64,000 bases of DNA from Bilabrum cf. latius (Eukaryota). Position 1 is the first letter of the stretch, and each line of letters opens with the position of its first letter. The translations under genes were made by a program, and so were the position numbers. The stretch is from positions 2,604,001 through 2,668,000 of the forward strand of contig OZ237735.1 of the NCBI GenBank assembly GCA_965178125.1. The letters run 5' to 3'. Below, piece by piece: positions 1 through 64,000 of this stretch. The notes under the pieces were generated by a model that made no database searches, was not told the origin of the DNA, and was given only the letters and a program-made list of their open reading frames with translations.

Positions 1-2856
1 GTCGAGGTGGAAGGCAGAGCATCGAGGGGGCTTGCCTTGGTGGCCTCTTTGGGAACGATGGAGCCCGACACCGGCGAACTCGTGCAGAGTGACATTGGTG
101 ATCGAGATAGTACCATCTGCGGAGACGGCACCCAGGGAAAATTGTCGCGTGAAGACAGAACGAAGGAGCAGGAGCATGTTGGATCTTTGGTGGGGGTGCA
201 GCCAGATCCCAGGCGTAGTGACGGGGCCTCCGCGGCAAGGCAGCGGTCACCACCACCACCAAGTGAAGAGCAGCTTCGAGTCCGTGCGATGGACCCCGCG
301 CCCATGTATCCCCACCCAATCGGTCCACAGGTCCCTTCATATTCTGGTATTTATCCGGAATTCTCTGCCATCTTCACCGGGTGCATGGAGGGGCTGTCAG
401 CGATCGGGCAAGCGGTGCGTGGCGGCCACAGTGGCCAGAAACGAGGCAAGCGCATCAGGGCGCAGAGGGCAGACGCGGTCCAAGCAGCAACGTGCTTCTT
501 GAGCATACTCCAGGCAGTCAAGGCTCACGATGTGGAGGCTGCCCCTTTCCAGGCGCCTCGCGGCAGCCTTCAGGGCCGCCTCACTCGAGAGGCCTACGTG
601 TCGCTCATTGCGCCGGTGCAAGCGGGCACAGGTGAGAGCGACAGCGGCAACGCGGGAGGCTCCGCGGACACCACCGACTCAGACGACGCGGACGAATGCC
701 CGCCCTCGCCCTCGCCTTCTACTCGTGGATCCAGCGATCACGAGGTCGACTCTGTACCCGGGGCCGATGACATCTGGTGGTCAAAGGCGGGCCAGAGGCT
801 GACCGCGCCGGATAGCGGACATGTACTCAGCCGAGGAGACGCAGAAATCTCCGCTGGGATTGCGGCGCTGCGCCGGAGGGCAGGCAAACCGGAGGCAAAG
901 CCGGCTCATGCTGCCACTGGGATGATGGCATCGCACGCAAAGCACCCCCCAAAACAGCCCGCTGTTTTGCCGCCGAGTGCAGCTTCCCACAAGGCGGGGC
1001 GCGGTAGATCCTCACGGGACATTATTAGAGCACAAGGAGACTTGCGCTCATCCCTGGCAAAACTGAGAGCCCTGTACACACTCGCCACGGACGATGAGGC
1101 ACTGCAAGGCAGGCCAGCCAGTGCCCCCAGCCAGAGTGCCGGCAACGAAGGCTCTGGATTCGCCCTGCCTGATCCACCGAAAGCTTCGTCTCTCGAGCAC
1201 TTTACTCGCGTCTTTCGGGTCATCCGGAATCGAAATGAGGTGTATTCCTTGGTCTGCAACGCGTTGGCGACGTGGGAGCGCCCGCCGAGCAAGCGCCGGG
1301 TGCAGCTCCAGGAGGATGCGGCGGCCGAGGGCAATCAGTCCTCCATGTGGCCCACTCTCACCGGGGGTGGCCTCTGGAGGGAAATGCACTGGGCGCTTGA
1401 CGTCACTCCCGGCTGGCACCTCCTGTGGTCCTGGGGAAAGCCGCCGGTGCAGCGATCCAAGCTGGTGGTCTGGCAGAAGGTGAACCACTTCAAGCACGCC
1501 AGAGAGCTCTGCAGGAAGGATCTACTCAAGAAGAACCTGGGCAGGTATCAGTGCCTGGGTGGGCGCATGGCCAGGGCATTCACCATCATGCCGCCTACCT
1601 TCGTGCTGCCCAAGGAGTACCTCGCGTTCGCTGAGGCGTTCGGGAAAGAGACCTACGGGGCCATGTCGGGCGACTCGGTGGCGGCCTATGCTACGACCAA
1701 TCAGAGCACGGCTCGCACAGTGGCTGCAGCGGCGGCAGCTGCGCTCTCCGCCGGAAAGGGCGTAGCACGAGTGGGTGCTGCTTCGGCAGCCGGGGCGCAG
1801 GCATAGGGTGGAGCAGGACCTAATTGGTGGATCCTCAAGCCCGTGGGCATGTCGAGAGGGCGAGGGATTGAGCTGGTCACCAGCATCGAGGACGTGCGAT
1901 ACGGCCAGGACTGCGTGCTGCAGCGGTACATCCGGAACCCTTGCTTGCTGGATGGATACAAATTCGACCTTCGGCTCTACGTGCTGGTGACGTCTTTCTC
2001 GCCGGTGGAGGCCTTCCTGTACACGAAGGGATTCGCAAGGCTGAGCTCTCGAAAGTACTCAACGAACACCGAGGGTGCCTCCGACAAAGCCATCCACCTG
2101 ACGAACAGCTCGATCTAGAAGCACGTGCAGGCAGGAGCGGCCTCGACAGTGCATTCGGCGGGTCAGGAGCACGCGGGTGGGACCAAGATATCGCTGCAGT
2201 ACCTTTGGCAGCGCCTCGCCGCGGATGGCAAGGACGTGCAGGCAGCCTGGTCCAACATCGTTGATGTAATTGTCAAGAGTCTGGTTTGCTTGGATGACGT
2301 GGTGCCTCATCAGCCCAACTCGTTCGAAGTATTCGGCTACGATGTCCTGCTTGACGAGAATTTGAGGGCGTGGCTGATCGAGGTGAACAGCAGCCCGTCC
2401 ATGGGCATTGACTCCATGCTGGACGCGCGCACAAAGCTGTCTCTGATCCGCGACACGGTGGCTCTCGTTGACCCCTTGCCTTTCTCGCACGAGGCGCTGG
2501 CAGAAGTGACTGAGAGGAGGATCCACATGCACGCGGAGGCAGCCAGGCGGCCGCACCAGGTCTCCATAGGCAGCGGGCTAGGCTCTGGCTCTGGGGCGTC
2601 GGTCACGGGTGAGGACCGCAGGCAGCTTGACCTCGACCTGTTCAGAGTCCTCCGAGGGAGGCGGCCCCGCGCGTACGGTGAGATGCCCGCGAGCCTGGGG
2701 GCCTACGAGAGGATATGTCCCGGGTCAGAGCCGTTCCGAAGGGTAATGAAGCTGAAGTTTTCTTAGTTTGCTAGCGGTACGCGAGCCGGCAAGGCGCGCC
2801 TGACCAAGATGGCGAAGGCGCTTGGCGCTGCGGGGTTGAGAAGAAAAGGGACCTGA
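1..2856 (+). CDS. Tubulin-tyrosine ligase-like (TTLL) polyglutamylase-type protein, 5'-partial
   Basis: ORFs 7-1806, 1843-2118 and 2125-2766 share one frame, joined by TAG at 1804, 2116 and 2764; first non-TAG stop is TGA 2854-2856. TTLL motifs: QKVNHF..LCRKDLL, WILKP..SRGRGI, QRYI.NP.L.DGYKFDLRLYVLVTS, HLTNSSI(Q)K, FEVFGYDVLLD...WLIEVNSSPS. Confidence 0.9.
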
Positions 2857-3043
2857 TCGAATTGTGGATCGTTCTATCTTGGCAGCCGTACGCGCAAATT
2901 GAGATCCATCTCTGCCTAGCCTTTGCTCAATCACCATGGTATCCTAATTCAACAAAACATCCGACACATGTTCTTGTAGCCAGATTGACGATCGTGTTCG
3001 CAATCTCGCTTAGACGCCCACAGGCTTGGCCCGGTCTGTCCCA

Positions 3044-5438
3044 TCACAGCTGCGTGGCCTGCCCAGATGACTGCACGCCCGCTGCATCCCTCGATGGCTC
3101 TGTGCTCCCAGGCGGGCAACACGCGATCCCGCAGTACGTGCACGGCCGGCCCAGGCAGCAGCACGCGCGGTTGCAGAAGCCGGCATCCGTATTCGGAGTT
3201 GAACAGCAGCCGTCGACCTCAGAATCGAGTACCGGGTGCGATGGAGCGGCGTTGCACAGGCACGGCAGCGCGGGGAACATTGACGCGTCCTCATACACCT
3301 CGTAGCAGCACCTTTGCACCTTCTTCCCTTCGCCCCCACCCCCGCAGCAGCAGCAGCACGCGTACCCCACGCACGCGACGCAGTTCCCGCAACCGATGCA
3401 AACAGCCCGAATGGTGCACAGCATAAGGATGAAGACTGTCGTGCATGGCACCACGATAAAGAAAAAGATAAACACCACGAACCCGCCCGGAGTGCCGGAC
3501 GGCTGGCAAGTGTCTCCGTCCTCGTCCGCGACTGGGACCACGAAGCATCCGCCATCGGGCACACCTGATTGATCTTGAAAGTAGCCGTAGCTGGCGTTGT
3601 TCTCTGTCACCATGGGATACCAAGCCGACCCGTGCGTGTAGTATGTGCACCTGTTGACATCTCCTCCACCAATGGCTGGCAGTATGTCCAAGCCCTTGCC
3701 TACAAGCTTCATGCAGCGATCCACCGCAGGCCGGTTCTGCAAATCGGTGACCCCAAACATGCACCGCATTCCCACATTCACGTCCAGCGACACTGCATAC
3801 GGATCCAGGCCGTCATAGAACCCCACGATGTGGTCAGAATGGTCGTCCGACGGATCCACGAAACCGCGCCACGAATCGGCTGGGTTTCCCATGGATTTGC
3901 CCTCGAACGTGAAGCACTGCGATCCCGTGGATCCAAACGTTACCGTGCGGAACCGCAGCTCGTGCACGTGCGCGTAGTACATGGACACAAGCTGCGCCCT
4001 TGTGCCGCCCTAGGAGTACCCATGGAAGGAGAAGTCCATGACGTCATCCTGCGTGGGTTCGTCGCCCAGGATCTCCTCGGCGATGGCGAGCGAGAGCGGA
4101 AACTGGCCGAAGGACTCGATGTCGTCTTCAAAGACGTAGTCGGACGAGTAGTCCCCGTTCTGCACGGCGTCTTTCAGGGCTCTGATTAGCTTCCTGACGC
4201 GAGCATTGAACTCTGGGAGGTGATGGTGAAGAGCACAGAGAGCGAGGCGGCAACAAGATCCGCGACTGCGAGATAGGGGATGGCTTGCTTTACTTCGAGT
4301 GAGACTCACCGAAGCGGACAGCCTGCCTAACAAACCATTCGAAGGCGCCTTCTTGGTCCTCCTCGTCCTCGGAGATCGACAGGCCTGCCTCGCGGTACCC
4401 GGACACAAGCGCCTCTCGGCTCTTGTGGTACATGAAGTTGCCGAACAGCAGCCGCACATTATAGAAATCGATGTCTCCGTAGCTGCCCCTGTAGCTCAGC
4501 ACCTGGTGCCCGCTGCCCATGGTCCACAGCACGGCATACACGCCCACCTCGTCGTCGGGCAGGAAGTCACCCGAGTCGCCGATGAAGGCGGTCTCGTTGG
4601 TGGCCTTGTCGGTGCCATCGGCAAAGAGCTGGTTCTTGAGCTCGGCCCGGAATCTGTTGGTGGCATCGAGCCTGTTTTGTTCTTCCTTCTCAACTGTGTC
4701 AGAGGCAGGCCCGAAGATGCTGCCCCCTTCGGCAAGCAGCTCAGAGAATTTGTCGGGGTCCACGCTGAGATCTTCGTCAGGGAAGGAAGTGATGCACAGC
4801 TTGGAAGAGGTGTGCACTCGCTCAAGGGGCGTGAGTCCTGAGAGTTCTGGAAGGACCACTTGGTCGATGGTGTCGCCACCAGTCGCGCTTTGCGACCGGC
4901 GGCTGCCAGAGAGAGCGCCACTGGCACTGGCAGCCTCACCGCGCCGGCTCCCAGGGGTGGCCAGCTGGCTCTCCGAGCCACGTGTGTTGCGGCTCGTGCG
5001 GAGCTCCCGCCTCTTCGTTCTCAGCTCATCTTCTTCTTCGGGTGTAAACTTGTGCACTGCCTACACCGTGTTCTTAAGCAGAGGGTGCTTCTTAAAGACG
5101 ATTTCAGGTGCAAATCCGTTGAAGGCCTGCAGCATAGGTTCGGACAGAGCAGGATTCAGCGCACTGGTGCGTGACTTCGATTACTAATGACTGCCGGCAT
5201 CTGTCAATTTAGATGCTTAACTGATTATGCATGCAGCCTTGCACTTCATCTCGGCGCCTGTAGCTCGAAGAGCTGTGGTCTCGCAAATGAGGCTGGGTCC
5301 ATCCGTATCGTCTGCGTAGGCTTTCCTCACCTGTTCGTGCAAGCGCCTGTGAGTTGGTGGCATAGCATCATGGATGTGTTCAAATTTGATAGCATGCACA
5401 GCAGCTAGACCGAGCAATAGTCCTACAGCGCCCTTCAT
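3044..5438 (-). CDS. Signal-peptide, single-pass membrane protein with Cys-rich C-terminal tail, unknown function
   Basis: N-terminus MKGAVGLLLGLAAVHA (ATG 5438). In-frame TAG at 5061 and 4010. GT-AG intron 4309-4213 keeps frame. TM segment GGFVVFIFFFIVV followed by CCCCC-rich tail; TGA at 3044. The 5' exon junction (about 5130-5250) is unresolved. Confidence 0.6.
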
Positions 5439-5746: not shown

Positions 5747-8700
5747 TCATTTTCCATATGATTCATTCGACTTGCCGTGGTCCGCCCCTGAATCGCTCTG
5801 CTAGGCCTCCGGCTGCCAGGACGAAACTCTGGCCATCGAAACGGCACCAAGGCCGCCCGCCTCCATCCCGGCGGCCCCGCCTGCAATCGGGCTAGTTGCG
5901 CCGCTCAGCACCTTGCTAGTTGCAGCGCTAATGCCCTTGCTCTGCGTCAGGGCTGACCGCAACTCATGGAGCGAGATGGCCCCGTCCCCGTCCTGGTCGA
6001 TGGCAGCCACTAGCTCGCCCACCTCCGACGGTGCCAGCTGCACACCGGCTTGCGAGAGTAGCCCGTTCAAGTCTTCCGGGCTCAGCAGCCCGGAATGATC
6101 CCCGTCTGCCGCCTCGAAGAGCCTCGAGATCGACACGCCGCCGCTGGCCATCGCATCTGCCACTCGCGCGATCAGCTGCCTCCTCGCCCGCAGGTGACCC
6201 TCATCCCTAGTTGTGAACAGGGTCGACAGCGGTGTCCCGGCCCACGAGGCCCTGGGCCGCTCCCGCCGCCGCTCCACCATTGTCTGGAAGAATCGCTCCC
6301 TGTCTGCAACTGCCACCCGAGACATGGCTCGCAGCAGAGCTCTGACCCCCGATGACGAGTAGTACAGGTCTGCGTTCATCAGCTTGAGCAGAGCGCGGGG
6401 CAGATGTCGGTCGGGCACCAGACGGTTCAGCCTAGCAGCCAGCTCTCGCTGCGGCGCGTCGATCTCCTTCCCTGCACCTGCTGCCGCGGCAGCTCCAGAG
6501 GTAGTCTCCTCTGTGCCCCCCCCCACAGGGGGCAGGTCCCCCCCCACAGGGGGCAGGTCCCCCCCCACAGGGGGCAGGTCCCCCCCCACAGGGGGCAGGT
6601 CCCCCCCCACAGGGGGCAGGTCCCCCCCCACAGGGGGCAGGTCCAGCACGGTGCCACTGGCAGGCAGGTATACCTCCGCCGACCGCGCCACACCGATGGC
6701 GTCCGGTGACTGCTCCGACAGCGGCGCGCCGCTCCCATTCCGCATGGCCCCGTGGAGCATGCGTCGGAGCGCCGCCGCATGCGCGAGAGGCACAAGCATG
6801 GTGGCTGCCCCGTCGTGAGGAGTGGACCCTGCGTCCGCCCCCCTCTGCGAGGGCGTCTACCCCACCCCGAGCATCGAGGGGGACCGGAATCCATACGGAT
6901 CGCTTGCCCCTTGCCCGCTCCCCATCGCAGCAACGGGTCCCTTAGACGTGGTGTCCTCCACCAGCTCCAGTGGCGCGGCTGTGCTCTGGTCGGGGGCACC
7001 TCCCGGCAGCGCCACCCTCACGGCCACCTCTGCGAGCTTGAGGCGGAAATCAGGCTAGAACACGATGCGTGGGGGGGCCCAGCCCCTGCTGATGAACAGA
7101 TCCTGTCCAACGGAGGCAAGGGGCGACTGGTCCTGGTGCGGCTGCCACTTGGCAAGGGAATGGAAGTGGCCGGCGGAGGCCTCGATCGCATCGGCAGCGG
7201 CCGCCTGTAGCCTGCCAAGCGTTGCCTGCTCCTACTCGGTCAGGCCACGGGGGGTGCCATCGTCCCCGCCGCTCTTCGACTCGCTCGTGCCTGCGCCTTG
7301 GCTGGCCTGCTCGCTCAGTACGGCCCTCAGACGAGCCCGCTCGGCCTGCTCCGCGGCGACCGCAGAAGCAGCCCGAGCTGCCGCTAGCACCGCATCTAGG
7401 TCCGCGGGGCTCCTGTCACCTAGCTTCACGTCGGCTGCGGCATACCACTTCATGTGCGTGACCTGTTTCTGCTCCTCCTTCTGCTCTTCTTGCTCCTTTT
7501 GCGCCTCCTTCTCCTGGATCATGTTCTCGTCCAGCCGTCGAGCTGCTGCACGCTGAGCCGCGAGCAACTCGTCCTCCTTGTCCTCTTTGCCGGCATGCAA
7601 GCCACCGGCAGCAGTGACACCCTGATGCTCTTTCATTCGCGCCTGGCGCTGTTCTTCCCTTTGCTGCTTGGCCGCTTGCGCCCTCCTCCGTATCTCAGCC
7701 AGGGCAGCCTCGGACGACGGCCTGACGAACTGGTTGACGCCCTCAAGTTGCTGCTCCAGCGACTGCTCGAAGGGCATCCCCTCATACTCCTCCCCGGGAT
7801 CGCCAGGAGCGGCCTCCCCCTTGAACGAAAAGTCCACGTCCTCGCGGAACACAGCTAGCGCGTCCTTCAAGGCCTCCTGCGTGCGAGGTACCTCACCCTC
7901 CCTTGCGTCTCTGCGCCGCACGCCGCCGTGGGCCAGCAGCAGGTCGGCGAGGGCGCTCTTTCTCCACACCTGCTCCAGGTCCTGCTGCCTCAGCTGCGCG
8001 TGCTGCAGCCTCTCGTGCTCGATGGTGTTGCGAGTCAGCCATGCAAGCACAGACACTGGGACTGGCTCGGAACCCCACAGCGAGCCCGCCGACCTCCTGA
8101 CCAGCCCTTGGATCTCGGGGGTCAGCAGCAGCTCCACCGTCTGACCCTTCGCGATGCCGCGCATGCGCCAGGCCGCTTGACTCACCGCGCGCACGTCCGA
8201 ATCCTTGCCTAACGTCAGCAGGGCGCGGGCGGTTGGCGCCTGCGCCAGGTCTGCACCGACGCAGTGGCTCTGGTCGTAGAAGCTCGTCCGCTTGGAAGGG
8301 TCGATGCCCACCTCGGACAATAGCTGCGGCCTGGGGTTCCCTCGCACCAGGATACGCTTGTCATCGTGCCGGTCAAAGTACACCACGCCATCCATGCCCT
8401 TGAGACCCTCCTTCAGCAGGAAGCGAGCCACCTCCTCGTTGTCCATGCCAAACACCAGCGCCCCGCAGTCTATGAGCGCATGGTACGGTGGGTCTGCCCT
8501 TGCCACTGCACGCAGCAGCCCGCGCACGGTCCAGCCCTCCGCATCTGCCACCCCATCGCCTGCGGTTGCACCGCTAAAGCCGGGCAAGTCAGCCATGCTG
8601 ACCACCTTGGGGTCGGTCAGGACGTGTATGATGCGGCCCTCCGAGCCCCTCTCGAAGCGGCAGGGTCCCATCGCCATCGGGGTCAGGTCGTTGGCCGTGC

Positions 8701-11700
8701 CGCTAAACCCGAATCGGACATCAAAGAGCGTGTCAGAGCCCAGCTCCTGCGCACTGGCCGAGATCTTTGCCTCTCGGTGCGAAGTCACCGTGTTGTACAC
8801 CACCGTCCGCAAAAAGTGCTCAATGGTCGGGACGTGGTATTGCAGGAGCCGCCAGGCCTCGAGCACGTGCGTGGGCTCCTCCACCTCGAGAAACTCCAGG
8901 CTGGGCACGCGAGGGAGCCCTTTGTGCGCCTGCCGGAGCGTCTCGTCGTCGAGGTCGCGGGTGTCCAAGCCAGCAGCCGCCGCCACGTCCAGAGAGCTCT
9001 GCCTGCTCACAAGGGTCGGCAGTTCGTCCTAGCCATCTGCTTCCGTGCTGTCGCCCGCCACAAGCGGCTCTGCCCCGCTGGAAGGCTGCCTGCTCATCGT
9101 TGCACTCGGCGCCCTGCCGCCTCGCGACGCGCCCCGAAGGCTGATGGCGCGGACGGCCACGGAAGCCGACCTCTGCGAAAACGCCTCGGCCAGCCGCCCG
9201 AACTTGCCCGTCCACTCCTCTCCGGCGCCGGCGATCCAGCTCTGGAAAAGCTTCCTCGAGGCCCTCTCCTCGTAAATACCCGGCTCTCGCTTGAGCGAGC
9301 TCTTGAGGTGCCGCAGCAGCACACGGATGTGCCTGAGCTGCAGGCCCTCCTGTCTGAAGCCAAGGTACGTCAACGAGATCAAGGCATCAACATGGGCAAA
9401 GTCAGCGGTGGGGGAGGGCACGTCCTTTGCCAGGAATGGCACCGCAACGAGGCCTCGGCGCTGGGCGCCCTGCGACAGCCCGCTGCTCATGGCATCGGAG
9501 TTCTTCGGCATCTCGGAATCCCTCAGGAGACCGTATGTAACTCGGTCGATCTTGCTGAGCACGTGAGGCCCCACCGAGGACACCCACTCCCTGCAGAGCA
9601 GCAGGATCTCCGTGGACCTTTTGCCCAGAAGTGCAAGCACCGCCCGTCTCTGCGGCTTGGTGAGCATCCCGCCTTGGCTCGCACCCAGTACGAAGGATAC
9701 CACGCAGCGCTGCGGCACTGGTCCTACCATGGTATCGCCCGCCCGGGGCCGAATGAATCGGTTCAGGCCTGCCTTAAGCTGCGCGAGCTCCTCTGATGAC
9801 ATCGATTCCTGACCGGCCTGCGAGGGACTGGAAGCATCAGCATCAGCATCGCCATCCTCGCGGAGCGGCAAGCCGCGGACCGCCTCTGTCACGGCATCAT
9901 CGTACAGGCTCTGGCTGGCGCGATCCGCTGCTAGTGCACCGTCCAACTGACTCGCCTGCCCCCCCTCCTTGGCCTGCTTCTGCCTTGCAGAGAGCTGCAC
10001 TTCTGCGCTGCGACGGACACCAGACGCGGCCTTTGTGAGATCTGACCTCACGGCATCCAGCGCGGATGCGCCGACAGCACCCATGAGCTGGAGGGCTTGC
10101 ATCATCTGTGCCCCCTTCTCTCCCAACCGCCCGATCGGCAGCTGGCTCGCGGCAGCTAGTGCAGCGTCCGACTGCCCTTGGACTGCTTGAAGCACCTGCT
10201 TGGCAGCCGAAACCGAAGCATCCGCGATGATTGACGCCGCCTTGCCCCAGTACTCCACCGGGATATCGTCCTGCACCTGCAATAGGAGAGAGGCTGCATC
10301 GCTGACGTCTCCCACGTCCTTGACCGCGTCCTTGAAGGCCTGCTGCTCCTCCTCCTGCGGGGTCTGCAGGCGGTTCCTTGACCGGAGCCACCAAGCCATC
10401 CAACGAGCAATTGCGTGTCCCAAGTGCTCCTCGTAGAAATGCCTCTGCAGCAGGATCAGGTGAGGCGACACCTGCAAGGCCCGCTTGCGCAAACCAAGTG
10501 CAATCGTGTCGCGGATGGGCATCTCGGCGGGGTTGATCTGGTTCTTGCTGCGCGACTTGGCCTCGCCCTGTGAGCTGGCACCGCCGCCGCCACCGATAGG
10601 CCCGAGCCCGAGCATCTCATCCCCGCCCACTGCCCCCAGTTCGGCATCGGGGTCGAAGTCCTCATTGCCCTCGGCCACGCCGTCAGAAGCAGGACCGGGG
10701 GCAGCAGGGTCCAGCGACCGGGCTCCGCTCGAACGCCCGGCTGCAGCGTCGGTGGCCCGGCACAGCACGTCCAGGATTGCAATCGGCAGCTCCCAGCGCT
10801 CCGGCCTCGGCTCTAGGTTCTTTTTGCTCGAGATGGGGTAGTTGCACTCGCTGGTCATGCTGTTGAGAAGGGCGTCAACCTCGTCCATGATCACGAGGCC
10901 CTTCTGCGCGGGGCTGAACATGTCAAGGATCTGAGCCAGCTCCTCGGCAGCCTTGGCGTGCTGCTCGGAGGACTCGCCTGTCGCGCTGTGGCGGGGAGTC
11001 TTGCCGTCCGTGCCGACGCCCTTTCCTGCTGCCTCGATGAACACGAGCATGAGCGACTTGATCGAAGTCGGGTCGCTCAGCACGATGCCTCCGCATGCCT
11101 GGGTGTCCTTGAGCTTGCGCCTCAGTTTCTTGAGCTCCCCGATCCCCTTCTCCTCAACAAATCCTCGGTTGAACTGCAGCTGGATGATGCGCTTGGGAAT
11201 CACGCGCGTGAACCGCTCGTACAGCACCTGGGCCGTCTGCGGGATGAGCGCTGCCGGAGCCACCTGCGTGACGAGTGTGTTCCCGTCCGCCAGTAGGAGA
11301 CTAGCCAGCGGCCCGATGGCGGCCGTCTTGCCAATGCCCATGAGGGCGCTGTAAATGCTAGAGGGGGAGTTCTTCCCGATGGACACGTCATCAGGGGACA
11401 CCTCCCTCCTGGCCTCGGCAGCAAAGCTGTCCACAAGCTCGACCTGTCTCTGTCGAAGGATCCAACCAAACAGGAACTCAAACACGAGGTACCGCGTGTC
11501 GAACACCGCCCCTCGAGAGTGCGAACCACCCGCAGCGCCTTCCGGTTCCGCAAAGGTAAGAGACCCATCCGCCTCGCTTGCTGCCACCCCCTTGGTGTAG
11601 TGCCTCACAGCCGACACCGTGGCAGCCAGCCTCTGGCCCTGCTGCAGCAAGCGGTCCGCTTCGTCAGCCTGAAGGGCTGTGCTCCTGCTTGCTAGCTTGC

Positions 11701-24987: not shown

Positions 24988-25271
24988 CTGCTGACATGTC
25001 GGCCCCTGCAGGTTATGCACGGCGGCTGATTTCCACCGGGCACTGGTAAGTTCCGCTCGACCCGTGTCGTGGCGCCGCGGCGCCACTGGCTCCGACACGA
25101 TTCAACAAAAGTAGTACGCATCCATTTCACTGGCGGGGCGTGTTCGAAGGAAGAAGTTTAGCGCTAGCTGTATTGATTCGTTTGTTTGGGCTCGTTTCAG
25201 CTATGACATGAAGCGCTGAGTTGGTGCCCTCGGTATATTTCACCACTTGCTTCTTCTGAAACGTCTTGACG

Positions 25272-31637: not shown

Positions 31638-31712
31638 GCGGTGTGGACCGGCACAGCGATTCTGCCTCCTGGCTTTGGCTCCGGATGGATCATCGATCGT
31701 GGTGCCCTGTGG

Positions 31713-38327: not shown

Positions 38328-38564
38328 AGAGCTTTCCCCGATCTAGGTATCTAGTTGTCTGTCCACACCCCCAAAAGTGCAATTCCGGGATTTAAGGCGA
38401 GTATTTGTAGCATTAGACTTTAGTGATGTCCTATACATTGGTTCAGCTGCAGCCATCGCGTTCTGATGTGCAATCTGAAACGGGTGTAAACATCTGTTTT
38501 TTGTTTTCATGCACGCTACAATTCGATTCTGAACAATTGCATTTTTCCGGTCCACTGAGGATGC

Positions 38565-40646: not shown

Positions 40647-40726
40647 CAAATTCGTTCTGCTTGAGTGATTTCCCGGGTCTGGCGTGCCGTGACATGCCGC
40701 TTCGCGTGCGTACCTTGCGTCGTTCA

Positions 40727-45586: not shown

Positions 45587-45738
45587 TCTTGAATAGTTGC
45601 CGAGAAAGCAAGGAAATAGAAGAAATTGAGTCTCAGCGAATCCGCCACCATGATGATGATGATGATGACATGATCATTCTGCTGCTTCTGTTCTTCTCTT
45701 CTTTGTGTGCCACGTACTGTAATGACAACACACTTGCA

Positions 45739-47418: not shown

Positions 47419-47749
47419 AACTTCCACTTCTACCAGATACGTGCCAGGGCAATTCGCAACTGATTCCACTACAGGGTCAGACTCGTTCGTGACAGGTGCA
47501 ACCAGCGATCTGACTACCAGTAGCACTTTTTAACGGCCAGCGCTGACTTGATCGACCTTGTATAAATCGTTTCCTTCCTTTGCACTGTGATTCAAGAATC
47601 CAATGTCAATGAAGAGACTAGAAATGGTGCAAACCACCCTGGACGTCGCGATTCTGAGTTGCGTGCACTTTAATGCCCCTGATGCTCACCTCCGAGTTCG
47701 ACAAACCGCGGGCTCCACTCGATCTAATGGCCGACATGACACCCCACAC

Positions 47750-50700: not shown

Positions 50701-51046
50701 AGCCAAGGTCGGCGTGAAGACGGCCACAGAACGCGTGAGAGAGGCTCGGCATGCCTGCCAGTGGTGTCTGGAGGCCTGCTTCCGGGTCCTACAGCTGAAC
50801 CAGGTGGCCGACTCTGTGGCGGTCGACCCGGACTGGGACCAGCCGCCCGAGGTCCGCAAGCGCAACAGGGACGCGAGAAAGGCGGCGCGCGCTCGGCAGC
50901 TGGAAGAGAAGCTAGCAGCAGAGGAGGAGGCCCGCATCAAGGCAGAAGAGGAGTTCCTGTCGGACAGTGAAGACGATCGAGACGAGGAAAAGGATGAGGA
51001 CGAGGAAGAGGAGGAAGAGGAAGAGGAAGGGGGTCCGGGTCAATAA
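47750..51046 (+). CDS. Type I membrane protein with N-terminal Cys-rich ExxVDCGG repeats and acidic tail
   Basis: Signal peptide MILSYTFVAAAGALLAVRA; CIDEEQN(TAG)HESAVDCGGEC and CFDGVWNNGEADVDCGGSC; TM YWAIILLFTAALAAIMGLLWWF. Six in-frame TAGs; ends TAA 51044-51046. Confidence 0.75.
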
Positions 51047-53094: not shown

Positions 53095-54317
53095 TCATTT
53101 GCTAGATGCACCGCTGCCGGCACCACCAGTAGCAGCCCCTCCTTCCCCCGACGACGCGCCCTCCCCGCCGAGAAGCAGCGACAGGAGCGCCATCCTCGTG
53201 TACAGCCCGTACCTCATCTGCCTGAAGTAGGCCGCCCGCGGGTCCGAATCCACCTCTTCCAGGATCTCGCCCACCCTTGGCAGCGGGTGCATCAGCACGC
53301 AATCCTCCTTGGCCTTGCTCATGGTCGCGGCATCCACGACGTAGGACCCCTGCGCCGCGAGGTACTCTGCCTCGCTGCCGAATCGCTCCCGCTGCACACG
53401 AGTGACGTACACCACGTCAGCGGAACCGATGCACTCCGCAAGGGATGGGGCCACGGAGCACTTGCTCCCCTTGGCCCTCGCTGCCTCGAGCACCTCCTCG
53501 GGCATTCCGAGTCCCTCGGGCGACACGCACACGATGCTCGCTCCAAACGGGGCGAGCAGCTTTGCAAGCGAGTGCACGGTGCGGCCGTGCTTCAAATCGC
53601 CGACCATGGCGATCGTGAGGCCCTTCAGGCAACTAGCCACTGCATCCTTGCCCCCGCCGGCCTTCCTCTCCGCGCATACGGTCACTAGGTCCAAGAGCGC
53701 CTGCGTGGGATGCTCGCCCGAGCCGTCCCCGGCGTTCAGCACCGGAACATCGACGGCGCTCGCTGCTTCCACGGCACTTCCCTTGGCAGGATGCCGGAGC
53801 ACGATTGCATCGCAATAGCATTCCATGGTTTTCATCGTGTCTCCCAGGGTTTCTCCCTTCTTAACCGAGGAAGACGAAGCACTCACCGGAACGACTGCTC
53901 CGCCAAGACGCAGCATGGCAGCATGGAAAGAGCACGAAGTTCGTGTGCTTGCTTCATAGAATACATTGGCAAGTATCTGCGTGGATGAGGTAAAATAGCG
54001 CCACAGGTACAACTTAGGTGAAGCTGCGATCGAATCGGCGCTCGAGCCTGCTAACTGCAACTCCTACCTTGGACTTCAGAATCTCGCACCTGCCACGAGT
54101 CTCTACGATATCTTTCATTTTCATCGCAGTCATCCATACAAGCCTGTGCGTGATGCGGGCTGAGAGGTGCATCCAGCGGCCGTTACCTTCTCTCGTGAAC
54201 CAGCGAGTTGCATCAGCAGCACTTCACTCACTCAAGAGCAGGGCCTGAAAACTAATCGACGGAGACAATGCTCTGTCCGCACCAATCACCTACATTTGAA
54301 CCTATATCCTGAGCCAT
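53095..54317 (-). CDS. pyrB: Aspartate carbamoyltransferase (stand-alone ATCase)
   Basis: FYEASTRT, KKGETLGDT, LNAGDGSGEHPTQALLD, VGDLKHGRTVHSL, YVTRVQRERF, MHPLPR, AAYFRQM. Intron 54067-53977; TGA at 53095. The exact start is uncertain. Confidence 0.93.
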
Positions 54318-54790: not shown

Positions 54791-57700
54791 ATGTCCTCAT
54801 CCAGTAAATCTTCAGGCGGTGCAGGCGCTGGCAGGCTGCCGGGCTCCGGGCGAAAACGCAAGGCTGGCGAAATGCAACCTGCCATCCCAGATCCCGCGAG
54901 GCTACTCGAGGATCCCAAGGACAGCAGGGGCAAATTGGTGATGAAAAATGGTAAGAGAGATATGCTAGGCTACGTCGGCTTGCGTGTGTACCAGCAAACC
55001 CGCGAAATACATTATGCAAGCGAAGTCGACACCAGCTGATGCAATTGTGTGTCACGGCCTGCCCGCCCGTTTGCGTTCCTCGCAGGCAAGACGATCGAAG
55101 GATTCAGCTTTGGTGCTCGCAAACCCATGGCTGGCGAGGTTGTGTTCAACACCGGCATGGTCGGTTACCCCGAGGCGCTGACGGACCCGTCGTACCGCGG
55201 GCAGATCCTCGTGCTCACCTACCCGCTCGTGGGCAACTACGGCGTGCCCGACCGCGAGGTCAAGGACGAGTACGGCCTTCCTAAGTTCTTCGAGAGCAAG
55301 GAGGTGCATATCTCTGGCCTCATCGTCTCCAGCTACACGGGTGAGAGGGGCACCGGTCCTGTGCAGTGCAATGCAGTTCAATGCATCCTGGTGCCGCCTG
55401 GCACATGCCCCCGTTGGCAGCATGCATGCAAGCATCCTTTCCCCCCCCCTTTCACTTCCCCACAACCCGCCCGCAGAGGATTTCTCCCACTGGAACGCCA
55501 CCTCCTCGCTGGGCCGCTGGCTGCAGGAATCGGGCATCCCAGCCCTGCACGGCGTAGACACGAGGGAGCTCACCAAGGGGCTCCGGGAGGAGGGATCCAC
55601 CCTCGGCAAGATCGTCTTCCCCAAGCTGGACGTGCCCTTCTCTGACCCTAACCGGCGCAACCTCGTGGCCGAGGTATCCTGCAAGGAGCCCATGGTCTTC
55701 AACAAGGGGGCCTCGCCCAAGATCGTCGCCTTCGACTGCGGCATCAAGTACAACATCATCCGGTACATCGCCAGGAAGGGCGTCGAGCTCACCGGTGAGT
55801 CCATGCTTGGCAACCCCGGGGATGGACGCTGCTTTCTTGCACCGCGATGAAAGCGAGCTCACTGCATGTTGCTGACCCCGCCCATGCCATGTTCACTTCT
55901 CCTAGTGCTCACTCTCTGTCTCTTCTCCCCCTTTTGTTGTCGTGCCCTTCACATCGCAGTGGTGCCCTACGACCACGACCTCAGCAAAGACCCCGTCAAG
56001 TACGACGGCGTGTTCGTGTCCAACGGGCCGGGTGACCCCGCCATGGCCTCCTCTGTGATCGTGCAGCTGAGGCGCATCCTGCGGAGATACGGCCTCACCG
56101 TGCCGGAGGACTCGCAGCTCCCGCGGTTCTCGGAGCGCCCCGAGGAAGGCGACGCGGCAGCGGCGAAGGGGACCGCGGGCAAGAGCGGGCAGGCCTTGAT
56201 GGAGGACGGAGAGGCGGCCACGGGCGGCGCCGCATCTGCGGCCAAGTCTTCCTCGTCATCGTCTTCGGCGGCGTCTTCTTCTTCCTCGTCTTCTGCCGCT
56301 GCTGCCGCGCCGGTCGTGGACTCGTCTGCTCCGCCGATCTTCGGCATCTGCCTGGGTAACCAGCTGCTGGCCCTGGCTGCAGGCGCCAAGACGTACAAGA
56401 TGAAGTACGGCAACCGCGGCATGAACCAGCCCTGCGTCGACATGCGCACCACGCGCTGCTACATCACCCCGCAGAACCACGGGTTCGCAGTGGACAGCGA
56501 GTCGCTGCCCGACGGGTGGCGCACGTTCTTTTTGAACGCGAACGACCACACCAACGAGGGCATCATCCACACGACGGCCCCAGTCAGCTCGGTGCAGTTC
56601 CACCCCGAGTCCAGCGGAGGTCCCCTCGACACGGACTTTCTGTTCGACATGTTCCTGGAGCAGGTCAAGGGAAGCCCTCCGGCCATTTCAACCGTGGAGC
56701 CCTCGCACTACCTAACTGGGCGCGGGAAGGTGCGCAAGGTGCTCATCCTGGGCTCCGGCGGGCTGTCCATCGGGCAGGCGGGCGAGTTCGACTACAGCGG
56801 CTCCCAGGCCATCAAGGCCCTCAAGGAGGAGAACATCCAGACCGTGCTGGTCAACCCGAACATCGCCACGGTGCAGACCTCCAAGGGGTTGGCTGACCGG
56901 GTGTACTTCCTGCCCGTGACCTCGGGCTTCGTCCTGGACATCATCAAGAAGGAGAGGCCCGACGCGATCCTCATCTCGATGGGCGGACAGACCGCACTCA
57001 ACGTGGGCGTGGAGCTCCACGACTCCGGGGCGCTGGCCAAGTACGGCGTGCGGGTGCTGGGCACGTCGATCGACACGATCAAGGCCACGGAGGACAGGGA
57101 GATCTTCGCGGCCAAGCTGGCGGAGATCGACGAGTCCATCGCCAAGTCGTTCCCCGCCACCTCGGTCGATGAGGCCGTGGAGGCGGCAGCCAAGATCGGA
57201 TACCCTGTGCTGGTGCGGGCGGCGTTCGCGCTGGGCGGGCTGGGGTCCGGTTTCGCCGACAACGAGGAGCAGCTCCGCGAGCTGGCTACCAAGGCCTTCG
57301 CCTCATCCTCGCAGATCCTGATCGACATGGACCTGAGGGGCTGGAAGGAGGTGGAGTACGAGGTGGTGCGCGACCGGATGGACAACTGCATCACGGTGTG
57401 CAACATGGAGAATTTCGACCCTCTGGGCGTGCACACGGGCGATAGCATCGTGGTGGCGCCGTCGCAGACACTGTCTAACTCGGAGTACTTCATGCTCCGC
57501 AAGACTGCCCTCAAGGTGGTCAGGCACCTTGGCGTGGTGGGCGAATGCAACATCCAGTACGCGCTCAACCCCAAGAGCGAGCAGTACTGCATCATCGAGG
57601 TGAACGCGCGGCTCTCGCGATCGTCTGCACTGGCCTCCAAGGCCACGGGGTACCCGCTGGCCTACGTGGCAGCCAAGCTGGCCCTGGGCGTGGACCTCGT

Positions 57701-60395
57701 GTCACTCCGAAACTCGATCACCAAGAGCACCACTGCATGCTTTGAGCCCAGCCTCGACTACTGCGTGGTGAAGGTGCCCCGGTGGGACCTCAAGAAGTTC
57801 AACCGAGTGTCAACCAACATCGGGAGCAGCATGAAGAGCGTGGGCGAAGTCATGAGCATCGCAAGGTCCTTCGAGGAGGCGCTGCAGAAGGCTGTCCGCA
57901 TGGTGAACCCCGCACTCGCGGGCTTCGAGGCCAGGCGCAAGACTTCTTCCCCTTCCGATGGCGGCAGCGCCTCGGCCGCTGTGAAATTTGCGGAAGGCAC
58001 CAAGTCCCCCGGCGAGCCCGGCGCCCTGCCCATGAGCCCGGCCCGGAACGGGGCCTCTTCGGTGCTGCCCCTGGCCAGCGCTGCCATGGACGGAGAGGGC
58101 CCCGACGGGCTCAAGCTCCCCACGGCTGCTAGCTCGGCTGCTAGCTCGGCTGCTGCTGCGTCGGGCAAGTCTATGCCTGCGAGGCGCAGGCAGCGGAGTG
58201 CCAGTACCGCCGAGGCCACGGCCATGGCAGGCGGGGACGCCTCCACCGACCTGCCCGCTGCGCACGCGCGCCCCGCTGCTAGCGGTGCCGGTGCGGACGC
58301 CCACCCCGTGTCGGGCAAGGGCCCTCGCGGGGACGGCTCTCGCAGCGCCAAGAAGAGGCGCAAGGCCGGTGGATCGGGCAAGCCCGGCGAGCTGGACGCG
58401 GCCGAGTACAGCGACGACGAGCTGAGCCACCGGCTGCAGAAGCCGCACCACACGCGCCTGCTTGAGATCGCCGAGGCCCTCGAGCGCGGGTGGACCGTGG
58501 ACCGCATCCACGACCTCACCCGGATCGACCCATTCTTCCTGCGCAAGCTGGCCACCATCGCAGACATGGGCAAGACCATCGAGGCCCACGGCAACGTGTC
58601 CACCCTGCCGGAGCACTCCATGAAAGAGCTCAAGCGGGTCGGCTTCTCGGACCTTCAGATCGCTCGCCGCATGGGCTGCGACGAGTTCGCGGTGCGCCGC
58701 CGCCGCAAGGAGATGGGCATCGTGCCTGCCGTCAAGCAGATCGACACGCTGGCCGCCGAATTCCCGGCGCAGACCAACTACTTGTACATGACCTATGGCG
58801 GAGACCACGACGACGTGGAGCCCACCAACGCGGGAGCGGTGGTGCTGGGCAGCGGTGCCTACTGCATCGGCTCGAGCGTCGAGTTCGACTGGTGCGCCGT
58901 GTCGTGCATCCGCACCCTGAGGCAGGCTGGCAACCCCGCCATCGTGGTGAACTACAACCCCGAGACCGTCAGCACGGACTACGACGAGAGCGACCGGCTG
59001 TACTTTGAGGAGCTGTCCCTGGAGAGGGTGATGGACATCTACGAGCGGGAGCAGCCCGGTGGGGTGATCGTGAGCGTGGGCGGGCAGATCCCCAACAACC
59101 TGGCGCTGCCGCTGCACAAGCAGGGCGTCAACGTGCTGGGCACCAACCCAATGATGATCGACCGCGCCGAGGACCGCTTCAAGTTCAGCCAGCTGCTGGA
59201 CGACCTCGGAGTGGACCAGCCCAGGTGGAAGGAGACCACCCGCGTGGAGGAGGTGCTCTCCTTCGTGGAGGAGGTGGGCTACCCCGTCATCGTGCGACCC
59301 TCCTACGTGCTCTCTGGCGCTGCCATGCGCGTGGCCGAGGACGAGCCGGCGCTGCGGGCTTGCCTGGAGGACGCCGTGGACGTGTCGCCCGAGTACCCAG
59401 TGGTGGTGAGCAAGTTCGTGCTCAACGCCAAGGAGGTGGAGTTCGACGCGGTGGCGAGCCGGGGGCACATCCTCAACTACGCTATCTCGGAGCACGTCGA
59501 GAACGCGGGCGTGCACTCTGGCGACGCGACCCTGGTGCTGCCGGCCCAGAAGCTGTACGTGGAGACGATCCGGCAGGTGAAGCGCATCTCCCAGTCGATC
59601 GCCAAGGCGCTGAATATCACCGGCCCGTTCAACATTCAGTTCATCAGCAAGGACAACGAGGTAAAGGTGATCGAGTGCAACCTGCGTGCGTCGAGGACGT
59701 TCCCCTTCATCAGCAAGACCTTCGACTTCAACTTCATCTCGCTGGCCACCAAGGCCATGGCGGGGCTGCCGCTGAAGCCTGGCGTCTTCTCCCTGGTGGA
59801 TCTGGACTACGTGGGGGTCAAGGCTCCCATGTTCTCCTTCACTCGGCTGCAGGGAGCGGACCCCACTCTGGGCGTGGAGATGATGTCTACCGGTGAGGTG
59901 GCGTGCTTCGGGCAGGACCTGCACGAGGCCTTCCTGAAGGCGCTGCTGTCGACAGGCTTCAAGCTGCCCAAGGCGAACAGCTCGGTGCTGTTGTCCTTCG
60001 GTGACGCCGAGAAGAAGCACCTGATTGAGGCCGCTGGAGTTCTCGAGAAGCTCGGCTTCTCCCTGTTTGCCACTGAGGGGACGCACAAGAGGATGGCGGA
60101 GGCCGGAGTGAAGAGTGAGATCCTGTACAAACCATCGTCGGGCAAGGAGCCCTCTGTGGTCACCGCCCTGGAGCAAGGCAAGATCTCGCTGGTCATCAAC
60201 GACCCGAACGCGGGTGACCGACAGGGCACCACCGACGGGTACGTCATCCGCCGTACCGCCGTGGACTTTGGTGTGAGCCTAATCACCAACTTTAAGTGCG
60301 CCGTGCTCTTCGCGAACGCATTGGCCAAGATCCGGTCGTTCCCCATCAAGCACGTGGACGAGTATTACACCCTGGGCCACCTTGCCGAAACATGA
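54791..60395 (+). CDS. Glutamine-dependent carbamoyl-phosphate synthetase (fused GATase and synthetase, CPS II type), ~1,720 aa
   Basis: [36 protein letters not shown] (catalytic Cys), [30 protein letters not shown], and a C-terminal MGS-like domain. Introns 54951-55085, 55341-55476 and 55795-55959; TGA 60393-60395; no TAG. Confidence 0.97.
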
Positions 60396-60599: not shown

Positions 60600-63500
60600 T
60601 CAGCCGGGTGGGAGCTGCGGAGGAGCTGCAGAAATACCCAGGTCCTGCCTCATGATCCTAGGGGAAAGAGATCCTGCAACAGCCGGTGACGCAGCGATAC
60701 TACGTTGCTTGCCTCGAGCCGCCCGTGGCGGCTCCGCTTGATGCGCGGTTGCTGCTCTGGCAATCCCTGCGACAGGCTTCGCAGCATCCCCTTGCTGGCC
60801 CTACAGGTACCTCGTGAGAGGAGACCGGGCCTGCATGCCGGTAGGGAGGAACGACCTCGACAATGCCAACGCTCCTGGCGCACTTGAGCTGCTCCCACCG
60901 GTGTTGCCATGGCCACGCCCCTCGGGGCTTGGAGCCTAGGGTTGGGCGCCCCCACGACCAAGCGCGCTATCCTGCCCAGCCTAGCTCCGATGCTGGGAAT
61001 GTGCCGGTGGAGAATGGTGCAACCCGGTGTCGACCTTTGCTCCAATATGCATGTATCGCTTGGGAGTTCGGCTGCGACGCTTGCGGCCGTAGCCACCCCT
61101 GTGCGCATCCGGCGAGGAAAGCGCAGATCCTGGCATGCCACCGTTGGCCTCTTGCCCGGCAGGCGGTGATGCGCCGAGTCGAGCAGATAATGGAGACCAT
61201 TCCTATTGGCGAGAGGCCGTTCCCAAGTCAGGTGCATGTACAGGCGCAGACCGCGCAGGGCCTGTATGTATGGAGACGGGTTGTAGTAGCTGCTCCTACC
61301 GTGTGTGCGTGTTTCGATCCGAATCGCCGCGGTTAAGTGTCTTCTTCAGGCCCGTGTCAACGCGACTAGGCACAGAGACGTACTTGGAGCCCGGAGAAGA
61401 TTTCGGCGCCAGTCGAGCGAGAAGCCCTGCTGGCAAGTCCTGCAACACGGTACCAGCAAGAGAAGGGGATACACCGGGCCGATGCATCGAGCTCGTCCTG
61501 ATTCGTGTGCCTCGCTGCAGCAAAGGCTCTTTGGGTCCCAGCACCCGCGGCACACCGCTCTGGTGCGAACTCAAAGATGCGGTTCCACCGGCACCACCGC
61601 TACCCTATCCGCTCTGCGGCAGGCGCACCTGCACATCTACTTGCTGCTGATGCTGCTGTTGCTATTCTCTCTGGGCCGCTGCATGCTCTAAAATGCCGCG
61701 AAGCGCCTGTGCGGGCGACTGGCCCTGAGACGGCGGTGATGATGCGACTTCTTGCACGGCCCTCTGGAGTGTTGCCACGCTAGGCATGCGCATGTGCTGA
61801 CGACCGGTCTACTCAGCCACTTGGTCCCCCGCGGCAGCAGGCGCAGCAGCAACGCCAGTGAACCCGCGGGGCCCAGTGGCAGTGACCGGAGGGGGTACTG
61901 ATGCAGCAAGCGTGCCCCCACGAGTTGATGTTTGCCTCGAAGGCACAGCAGTTGACCCATTCAGCAGTTGACCCATGCCCGCCTACGACGGGTTGCCCTC
62001 GTCGTCTGTCGGTCGCTCGAACCCGGTGTCCTGGCCGCGGATTGCTGCCTTGCTGCGGAGGTGCGCCAGGAGCTGCATGGCAGCTGCAGCCTTGTCTGAG
62101 CCCAGTGTCGCGGGGTCTGTCGCAGCACCACCAGCGACTCCCGATGCTCTAGGTGCCGGGGGCTCTCCCAATGCGGCGGGGCGGAATGACGCAGACTGCA
62201 GCGCTTCCCGCTGCTGCCTCCTCAGCTCGTGGTTCTCTGAGGTCAGCGCGGCAAGCCGGTCTGCCACGAGGAGGGACTCCTTGGCCGCAGCCAGAACTTC
62301 CTCGTTCAGCTTGTTCTTTGTGCTGGCGGAGCTGCCGTCGGCTCCTTCTTCCAGCTGGCGCGCCTGCTCCTCGTGCTGCCTTACCATCTCTCGGATCCGC
62401 TCCACCCTCGCAAGCTCGTCCGCGAGCTACGCACTGCCCGGCGATGCCGCTGCAGCGCTGGGACCAGCTAACCCAGAGGCATCCAGCGCGCCGAGTGCCT
62501 TGGTTACGGAGCTCTTACCCGACTTCGAGGGCGAGCTGACAAGTCGGCCGTGCTGCCTGCGAGAGCGAAGCAGCTTCTCATTAGCTTGGTGCATGGTCTC
62601 CACGGCCTGCCGCAGCTAGCTATTCTCGATTTCAGCCTCCAGCAGGGCTCTCAGGCTCTTACTGTGCTCGCCAGCGAGCTTGGCCAGTTCAGACGCTTGC
62701 TCAACGGACATATTCCTGGTTATGAGGTCGGCTTGGTGCTGCGCTGCATCCAGCAACGGAGTTAGCATGGCTGGCTGGTCCTCTTCCTTGTTGGAAGCAG
62801 CCGCCCCTTCGGCCATGTTTTCACCATCGGGACGCTCGCTTGCAGTGCCGCGAGCCGTGTAGCCTTCATCTGCCCTGCGCGGCTTGCTTACCGATGCTCC
62901 TGCATCATTGGCCGCGATCTGAGCGTGGCGCGAGCCGTTGGCAACGTTTGCTTGTTGCGGCACCTCGTCAGCATCGAGCGGCCCGTGCGCTAGGAGCTGC
63001 ATGTCCATCCACTCTCGCACAGACTGGAGGGCTCTCTGCGCCGCCCGATCCAAATCATCTTCACAATCAGCGTCCGAGGTGGTAGAGCCCCTCGACGTGC
63101 CTTGAGCTAGGCCCGCGAGGGCGCTCGGCATGTCGGCACGTGCCGCCGCCGCTCTCTCAGCAGCAGCAGCCCGCCCGAGTGGATACGTCTGTACCGCGTC
63201 CATGGATGGCAGCCCTGCAGCACGCGGTGTTCTGTTCTCCTACTCTGGGGAGGCGGGCGGTGACAGGTGCGCTCCCGGGGCCACCCTGGACGAACGCGAG
63301 GAGACCGCCCTTGCCGCCGCTGCAGCCGCCCTGGCAGTGGCCATGCCGGCAGATTCCGCCTGCAGCAACAGCGTGGCTTCCAGCTCCCGCACCTGACTCA
63401 CTGCAGCCGCGACTGCCATCTGGCCGGCTCGCCTGGCTCGGCGCACGACCTCTTGCGGGGACTGGTCGCCGTCCTCGTCGTCAACTGGCAGCCCCGCCGA

Positions 63501-64000
63501 TCGCAACGGACTCGCAGGCACCTCTGTGCTCAGCTGTTGCTGTGCAGTGGCCACTGCTCGAAAGGCTGCAGCTGCTGCTTCTGCCACCGGACTCGCGTTT
63601 CTTGCGCTTCGGGACAGGCCCTGAATGGCGGCCAGGTCCTCGTTCCGCTCAGGCGGGGTGCGCGGGCCGCTGATGCGGAGACCTTCCGTGCTGGCCACGG
63701 CTGAATCGCCCTGGGTGCTGGGGGTAGAATCGCGCGCTCCGGTCTAGCTTGCATCGCTGCCCGCCTCCACGTTGTTCCCCATCGACTGCACAATCCTGCT
63801 CAGTGAGGACCGTGTGGATGAGGGCTGGCGCACCTGCTCGGGCAAAGCCGGCGCGCGGAGTCCCTTAAACCCAGTAGATCCCCGGCGAGGTACTTGTCCC
63901 AGAACATCCAGGTGTGCCGGGGCGCTACTGCCCTCAAGCACACCAGGAGAAGACACGCGCCTGCCATGCTCGCCCGTCGACTCGTGTCCGTGTTGGTGGC
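60600..64000 (-). CDS. Low-complexity/coiled-coil hypothetical protein, 5'-partial
   Basis: ORFs with low ends 63744, 63240, 62616, 61983 and 61296 share one frame with about 13 TAGs; first other stop is TGA 60600-60602. Confidence 0.65.

Follow-up and report, generated by a model that had tools for sequence, protein, structure and literature searches.

In a 64,000-nucleotide stretch of the Bilabrum cf. latius assembly (contig OZ237735.1, positions 2,604,001 to 2,668,000; hereafter the window), the codon UAG is best read as glutamine, with UAA and UGA both excluded from sense use, and we place the probability of this reading at roughly 0.88. Glutamine had been proposed in a preliminary description of the window, and five independent lines of evidence now lead to the same residue: conserved alignment columns, a codon likelihood with its control, the codons and predicted proteins of close relatives, a natural TAG/CAG variant, and TAG codons kept in spliced transcripts. 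The absence of any in-frame TAA, together with one gene that ends in TAA, argues for a reassignment of UAG only, and the data support a code equal to NCBI table 15 (UAG = Gln only) in which UGA is the main stop and UAA a rare one. In the nuclear DNA of what appears to be a GC-rich, intron-poor protist, UAG would be an ordinary, moderately used glutamine codon that no longer serves as a stop.

In-frame TAG codons and stop codon usage

The window holds eukaryotic genes on both strands, is 58–66% G+C all along its 64 kb (about 62% overall), and has few introns, which are of the GT-AG type and short (90–208 nt). Across 18 gene models, spliced according to the observed joints, we counted 94 TAG, 0 TAA and 0 TGA in frame among 18,615 sense codons. 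TAG was present in 15 of the 18 genes and absent from those encoding CPSII, aspartate carbamoyltransferase (ATCase) and a DCN1-like protein. The earlier estimate, about 95 TAGs on the two strands spread over 15 of the 18 genes, was off by a single codon. Pfam domains extend across the TAGs. Two details of that description changed on recounting. Three TAGs upstream of the Bmt2 start are 5′ region in that frame, a separate gene upstream of Bmt2 (26916–27914) having six TAGs of its own, and the single TAG of the ATCase open reading frame (ORF codon 4) lies upstream of both the likely splice acceptor and the aligned part, and was left uncounted.

ORFs merge only when TAG is read as sense, and they do so far above chance. 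With three stops the longest ORFs span 1,515, 1,405 and 942 codons, and with TAG as sense they span 6,387, 1,568, 1,515 and 1,152 codons; TAA as sense left the top ORFs unchanged, and TGA as sense gave at most 1,853 codons. Within the 14 longest ORFs, TAG occurs 89 times in frame 0 versus 96 and 108 times in frames 1 and 2, while the corresponding counts are 0 versus 39 and 48 for TAA and 0 versus 262 and 298 for TGA. Because TAG is as frequent in frame as out of frame, it acts as a sense codon under no counter-selection. It accounts for 94 of the 828 putative Gln codons (11%). CPSII, the gene with the strongest codon bias, does without it: third-position G+C (GC3) is 0.88, Gln is encoded by 37 CAG and 1 CAA, and the 1,514 codons of the last exon include no TAG.

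TGA terminates 17 of the 18 genes and TAA the remaining one; TAG terminates none. The 17 TGA ends would also be expected under NCBI table 6, in which UAA and UAG both encode Gln and UGA is the sole stop, TAA being rare here through GC richness. This reading can further call on the TAA-ended gene (stop at 51044–51046), whose frame meets a TGA 22 codons further on, and on a GC3 of about 0.6–0.9, which would depress TAA. However, CAA and CAG occur at 151:583, and a sense TAA in the same proportion to TAG would number about 24; none was observed alongside the 94 TAGs, even though TAA is a common triplet in the other two frames of the same ORFs. Moreover, no top ORF is lengthened by TAA as sense, and upstream extensions through TAA amount to 0–73 codons and add no domain. 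We consider table 6 very unlikely, and the restriction to UAG in the preliminary description stands.

No more probable than table 6 is an ambiguous UAG that is sense within genes and a stop near their 3′ ends, as in Condylostoma, karyorelicts and Blastocrithidia. The gene ends seen number just 22, which leaves some room for it, but TAG is found at none of them, neither in the window (0/18) nor in a related metagenome locus, L001, described below (0/4), where all four complete genes end in TGA. TAG also occurs close to gene ends, 18 codons ahead of the stop in the giant gene (codon 6369 of a 6,387-codon ORF) and four codons ahead of it in the 26916–27914 gene. The code in the window looks unambiguous.

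The genes on which the residue assignment and the transcript comparison draw are the following (coordinates are those of the window):

1–2856, + strand: tubulin-tyrosine-ligase-like protein (TTLL), 5′ end beyond the window; Pfam TTL, 9.3e-68; three in-frame TAGs (1804, 2116, 2764); stop TGA.
5747–24739, − strand: giant DUF3638/DUF3645/C-terminal EF-hands protein; single exon, 6,331 codons; 25 in-frame TAGs, no TAA and no TGA; stop TGA.
25272–26741, + strand: Josephin-domain deubiquitinase; Pfam Josephin, 6.9e-26; four TAGs (25320, 25407, 25620, 26316).
26916–27914, + strand: gene without a Pfam family, conserved in L001; six in-frame TAGs; stop TGA.
28019–29668, + strand: Bmt2-type rRNA methyltransferase; Pfam Bmt2, 3.4e-38; eight in-frame TAGs (28205, 28241, 28244, 28295, 28427, 28544, 29162, 29489); stop TGA.
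30071–31553, − strand: MYG1 exonuclease; two exons separated by a 94-nt GT-AG intron (31165–31258); Pfam, 4.2e-87; two TAGs (31061–31063, 31019–31021).
32252–33726, + strand: secreted-looking protein without a Pfam family; four exons, spliced ORF continuous; introns 32383–32481, 32589–32682 and 33050–33257; two TAGs (32372, 32976).
34134–35090, + strand: DCN1-like (cullin-binding) protein; two 90-nt introns; Pfam Cullin_binding, 7.8e-20; no TAG.
38565–40646, + strand: RING-finger protein; Pfam zf-C3HC4_3; six TAGs (39162, 39804, 40041, 40263, 40467, 40482).
40727–45430, − strand: AlgH/DUF179-like protein with a long insertion; Pfam DUF179; 13 TAGs.

Conserved columns and codon likelihood

For alignment, TAG was translated as X so that the comparison stayed unsteered. 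The preliminary description had singled out five positions as conserved glutamines (2116, 25320, 28241, and 31061–31063 and 41225–41227 on the minus strand); all five are TAG, and four of them align with Gln. In the DHHXR motif of MYG1, the homologues have Q in 119 of 119 aligned cases (1 gap), as does the human structure, and at the first X of YXXAS in Bmt2 they have Q in 22 of 22 (25 homologues in total, 3 with gaps). TAG 25320 of the Josephin gene corresponds to the Gln preceding the catalytic Cys, with Q in all four of the JOSD2 and ataxin-3 alignments shown, and the X of GWAPGXLE in the DUF179 protein is Q in both chains compared (2haf, 2aj2). At the fifth site, HLTNSSIXK in TTLL, all three TTLL6 chains shown have Asn, and a conserved glutamine is not demonstrated there. 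Elsewhere in Bmt2, Q occurs in 12 of 25 homologues at NSXD and in 9 of 25 at PLXR, the remaining three TAG columns being variable, while the three SAMTOR alignments shown all have Q at PSPLXR. TAGs in the RING domain were excluded from the residue test because Gln is not conserved there.

A Codetta-like column likelihood over 14 TAG columns favoured Gln at +12.2, followed by Ala at −6.0; Lys reached −14.1, and Leu, Ser and Glu also scored below Ala. The columns, each with at least three aligned residues, came from MYG1, Bmt2 and a 1,200-aa piece of the giant protein, the last of which yielded one widely conserved TAG column (834), itself variable. As a control, 56 of the 58 sense codons with at least five columns regained their standard meaning. 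TAG-aligned columns are thus enriched for Gln, as they should be if the earlier proposal is correct.

Evidence from close relatives

Public protein fragments sharing 96–98% identity with the giant protein break off exactly one residue short of TAGs of the window: they span residues 95–189, 714–833, 847–993 and 1005–1076 of the query, and the TAGs lie at 190, 834, 994 and 1077. Likewise, one 91% identical fragment begins at 199, two residues past TAG 197, and a 90% identical MYG1 prediction begins just past the two TAGs of MYG1. These bounded fragments are standard-code predictions cut at TAG. With protein predictions cut at each TAG, standard-code annotations, orthologue sets and phylogenomic matrices are consequently wrong for most genes (15 of 18 here). 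Where near-identical fragments span a window TAG, they have Gln opposite it in all three cases (P0266, 91% identical; P0276, 81%; P0273, 95%). The TAG-bounded public predictions from this organism or very close strains are P0026, P0266, P0268, P0270, P0271 and P0273.

The MYG1 alignment led to L001, a 6.1-kb metagenome contig (GC 0.56) that is syntenic with the window over DCN1, MYG1, Bmt2 and the small gene upstream, at 47–75% amino-acid identity, and whose Bmt2 orthologue confirms the start Met of the Bmt2 gene. L001 has its own in-frame TAGs, five in Bmt2 and one in the neighbouring gene. The 13 window TAGs that align to L001 face CAG four times, TAG, AAG and GGN twice each, and ACT, GTT and GCA once each, so that 4 of the 11 opposite a non-TAG codon face CAG; the TAG at codon 330 of the 26916–27914 ORF faces CAG. 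In the other direction, two of the six L001 TAGs are shared with the window, two lie opposite window CAA, and one each opposite GCA and GTG. One of these CAA codons sits in an AVNTQ motif, whose Q column is not among the listed invariant or nearly invariant columns of alignment A1. Altogether, 6 of the 15 unshared comparisons pair TAG with a Gln codon, versus a Gln share of about 4% among all codons. Since both the window and L001 carry in-frame TAGs, the reassignment predates the split of these two organisms, and the sequences indicate a lineage trait, common to at least one clearly diverged relative, as opposed to an oddity of one strain. A related-locus search with 4,990 aa of the giant protein matched 263 pattern stretches and found no relative, and loci L002–L007 (27–53% identity) were too distant for the codon comparison and were left out of it.

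Slightly less probable than either alternative stop usage is that UAG stands for another residue, such as the Glu, Lys, Leu, Ser or Tyr of other UAG reassignments, or that near-cognate read-through inserts a mixture. Homologues do have K, E, A, S or R at variable TAG columns, and at one Bmt2 column K comes second to Q with 7 against 9. Nevertheless, the log-odds of +12.2 for Gln against −6.0 for Ala and −14.1 for Lys, the two invariant Gln columns (119/119 and 22/22), and the TAG at the catalytic-site Gln of Josephin all argue against it, as do the exchanges of TAG with CAG and CAA between close relatives and within the species. A recoding of the selenocysteine or pyrrolysine type is ruled out by the 94 sites, the unrelated genes in which they lie, and the Gln columns.

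TAG codons in spliced transcripts and sequencing runs

Public sequencing runs, here numbered X1 to X8, contain the window at 30–99% of words under four organism names and in four studies, and small shares of the window are also found in runs labelled 'protist metagenome' and 'algae metagenome'; other cultures may contain the organism as a companion. Sampled words of the window were present at 99% in X1–X4, which come from one sample, and at 53–70% in X5 and X7, from a second study, and X6, from a third. We compared contigs, as distinct from raw reads, of X1, X5, X6 and X7 with positions 25001–45000.

Six GT..AG introns retained in the DNA-like run X1 have been removed from contigs of X5, X6 and X7 (31165–31258, 32383–32481, 32589–32682, 33050–33257, 34258–34347 and 34402–34491); the DCN1 joints 34257/34348 and 34401/34492, for example, are found in all three runs. 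These contigs are therefore transcript-derived at least at those introns, the removed introns being the sole ground for treating X5–X7 as RNA. In all three runs the spliced MYG1 contigs keep both TAGs with no differences, indicating that these TAGs are neither edited nor spliced out. Altogether, the listed X5 and X6 contigs cover 38 TAGs without a difference, in the Josephin gene, the gene upstream of Bmt2, Bmt2, MYG1, and the secreted-protein, RING and DUF179 genes. Among them, X5 contigs 25146–26724 and 41105–45000 run over the Josephin and DUF179 genes, and X6 contigs 38562–39501 and 39556–40643 over the RING gene, each with no differences. Parts of the stretch from 35.7 to 38.3 kb have little or no X6 and X7 cover, from which we draw no meaning.

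All listed differences are confined to 32515–33605, in variant copies of one gene. There, at 32976, the T of a TAG is C in contigs of X1, X5 and X7, giving CAG in a variant copy or allele. As the C is also present in DNA-like X1, this is a natural TAG/CAG variant and not editing.

That the TAGs go untranslated, through assembly or sequencing error, UAG-to-CAG editing, pseudogenes or unrecognised introns, is the least credible alternative and close to negligible: TAG 32976 does read C in other contigs, and the ATCase-ORF TAG and a TAG at 32661 do fall in introns, but the bases at TAGs are identical in four runs from three studies with no differences listed outside the variant-copy interval, spliced contigs retain TAGs, the C at 32976 is the variant just described, domains are intact with a strong third-position GC bias across TAGs, and L001 has in-frame TAGs of its own.

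Lineage placement

The best named matches to CPSII are Albugo, Cafeteria, Phytophthora, Saprolegnia, Aurantiochytrium, diatoms and brown algae, and all of the roughly 20 best named matches are stramenopiles save two, Bigelowiella and Batrachochytrium. In a quick IQ-TREE analysis of CPSII (38 rows; chosen from 120 listed, 20 of them named and 17 unnamed or coded), the window falls in a set of seven with Cafeteria roenbergensis and five unnamed sequences, with a Shimodaira–Hasegawa-like approximate likelihood-ratio test (SH-aLRT) value of 99, apart from labyrinthulomycetes, oomycetes and ochrophytes. In a quick MYG1 tree, the window, its two relatives and the two named stramenopiles, Fibrocapsa and Aphanomyces, belong to one set of 12 (SH-aLRT 97) that excludes fungi and animals. 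MYG1 is 68–90% identical to unnamed relatives and about 40% identical to any named organism, a drop which shows that the lineage is poorly represented in named databases. On these two single-gene trees, the organism is likely a stramenopile near the bicosoecids and Cafeteria, itself not known to deviate from the standard code.

Weight of the assignment and a proposed mechanism

Several observations count against UAG = Gln as stated here. Besides the Asn opposite TTLL position 2116, several TAGs fall in variable columns, where homologues show R/A, A/E, S or E/R/S, and public fragments of 56–59% identity have E, G, Q, D and T opposite TAG. Run X5 was graded 'probably DNA', and contigs over intron-less genes are no proof of RNA origin. 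TAA is known as a terminator from one gene, whose frame continues for 22 codons to TGA. ARAGORN found no tRNA gene in the window or in L001–L007, and eRF1 is not among the genes of the window. The sequence basis is limited to 64 kb plus 6 kb, and the genome-wide extent of UAG = Gln is an extrapolation from the window and this one relative locus.

Codes of this kind are known to arise by a change of the tRNA-Gln anticodon from CUG to CUA, together with an eRF1 blind to UAG. In this organism, UAG would be read by a dedicated tRNA-Gln(CUA), one C-to-U step away from tRNA-Gln(CUG), and eRF1 would have lost recognition of UAG and kept that of UAA and UGA. PMC11687900 argues that UAG, unlike UAA, can be read by a CUA anticodon.

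Other features of the window

The remaining genes are listed below.

3044–4459, − strand: Cys-rich protein without a Pfam family; one TAG (4010–4012); stop TGA.
35232–38612, − strand: ankyrin-repeat protein ORF with a provisional start; two TAGs within the ORF (38343–38345, 38058–38060), which may lie upstream or downstream of the real start.
45739–47418, − strand: C2H2 zinc-finger array; one TAG (47206–47208).
47603–51046, + strand: Cys-rich membrane protein; six TAGs; the sole gene ending in TAA (51044–51046).
51263–52417, − strand: Pro-rich protein with villin headpiece; Pfam VHP; two TAGs (51794–51796, 51767–51769).
53095–53979, − strand: ATCase, last exon; no TAG in the coding part; identified by Pfam and by a PDB match (6.7e-82) to the human CAD ATCase domain.
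55040–60395, + strand: CPSII, a glutamine amidotransferase fused to carbamoyl-phosphate synthase.
60600–63998, − strand: low-complexity protein, 5′ end beyond the window; 13 TAGs.

ATCase and CPSII stand head to head with about 1 kb between them, forming a pyrimidine-synthesis gene pair. CPSII fuses GATase to CPS, lacks ATCase and DHOase domains, and carries a low-complexity insert that separates its two synthetase halves; at least two introns interrupt the 5′ part of its gene. The giant protein contains UIM-like motifs and a DLPPVGG unit repeated six times in tandem. Some 270 of its residues (600–870 of the searched piece), which no Pfam model covers, are kept in many proteins of 4,000–7,000 residues. 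The AlgH/DUF179 fold is split within one open frame, with the N-terminal part near ORF residue 120, the GWxxGQLE part near residue 1,400, and about 1,200 low-complexity residues between the two. The C2H2 array consists of about 14 nearly identical fingers, and a second frame on the same strand that stays open for 495 codons (45633–47120) is probably a by-product of this repeat.

Bmt2 and MYG1 are convergent and flank a full-length 5S rRNA gene (29820–29938, − strand; Rfam, 81.4 bits). The depth of the X1 contig in the 5S rRNA bin is 292, versus about 7–19 nearby, as expected of a multi-copy gene.

The secreted-protein gene (32252–33726) sits in a stretch of lower GC (0.58; window positions 31700–34100) and is missing from the syntenic L001, where the gap between MYG1 and DCN1 measures about 1.3 kb (L001 745–2100). 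Variant copies of it occur in the runs; those in X7 differ at many positions, those in X1 and X5 at a few. Together, these observations suggest that the gene was recently gained or duplicated.

Comparison with known genetic codes

Our literature search, which left most subscription journals outside its reach, so that a report could exist, turned up no published change of the nuclear code in stramenopiles, bicosoecids or Bigyra. A 2024 overview of stramenopiles has the terms 'genetic code' and 'codon reassignment' nowhere but in its reference list, within the title of a single mitochondrial paper. The odds seem to us evenly balanced that the window represents the first nuclear stop-codon reassignment known in stramenopiles, UAG = Gln having arisen independently in a bicosoecid-related clade, in at least two diverged species, in a GC-rich setting and with UGA as nearly the sole stop. 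Nuclear code changes are rare, and even fewer are known to uncouple UAG from UAA; the present case, which appears to have arisen independently in another of the major groups, would be a data point on the co-evolution of release-factor specificity and suppressor tRNAs. If true, the GC-rich setting would be the opposite of the AT pressure usually invoked in 'codon capture' scenarios, and the organism would offer a culturable non-ciliate model of UAG–UAA uncoupling.

Several known systems share one property or another with the window. Codes without a dedicated stop, known from Condylostoma, karyorelicts, Blastocrithidia and Amoebophrya sp. ex Karlodinium, likewise place a standard stop codon inside genes; unlike them, the window excludes TGA and TAA from its frames and never ends a gene in TAG. 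UAG alone has moved to residues other than Gln in the rhizarian exLh (Leu), Scotinosphaera (Ser) and a phyllopharyngean ciliate (Leu), according to PMC11687900, a 2024 paper, and the ciliate PL0344 reads UAG as Glu and UAA as Lys, according to PMC11687900 and PMC10553269. As in all of these, UAG in the window is uncoupled from UAA, but the residue here is Gln. UAR, that is, UAA and UAG together, encodes Gln (table 6) in many ciliates, Ulvophyceae, Hexamita, Streblomastix and Amoeboaphelidium, as listed in PMC11687900. These lineages resemble the window in reading a stop of the UAR pair as Gln and in using UGA as the main stop, but they use both UAA and UAG as sense codons, whereas the window has no in-frame TAA against 94 TAGs.

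The closest counterparts are the lineages in which UAG only has become Gln, given in PMC11687900 as Iotanema spirale (Fornicata), Protocruzia tuzeti and two phyllopharyngean ciliate lineages; the Iotanema-type code, with UAA kept as a stop, is also treated in PMC5304391. As far as these sources go, the window shares with them the reassignment of UAG alone to Gln, a UAA that is not sense, and TAGs throughout ordinary genes. For the Iotanema and ciliate cases the tRNA and eRF1 are described, according to the papers. The window differs from the metamonad and ciliate cases in that it probably groups with stramenopiles, has a GC of 0.58–0.66, and ends 17 of its 18 genes in UGA. UAG = Gln is thus a kind of code already known, and what is unusual here is its GC-rich setting and the near-exclusive use of UGA for termination.

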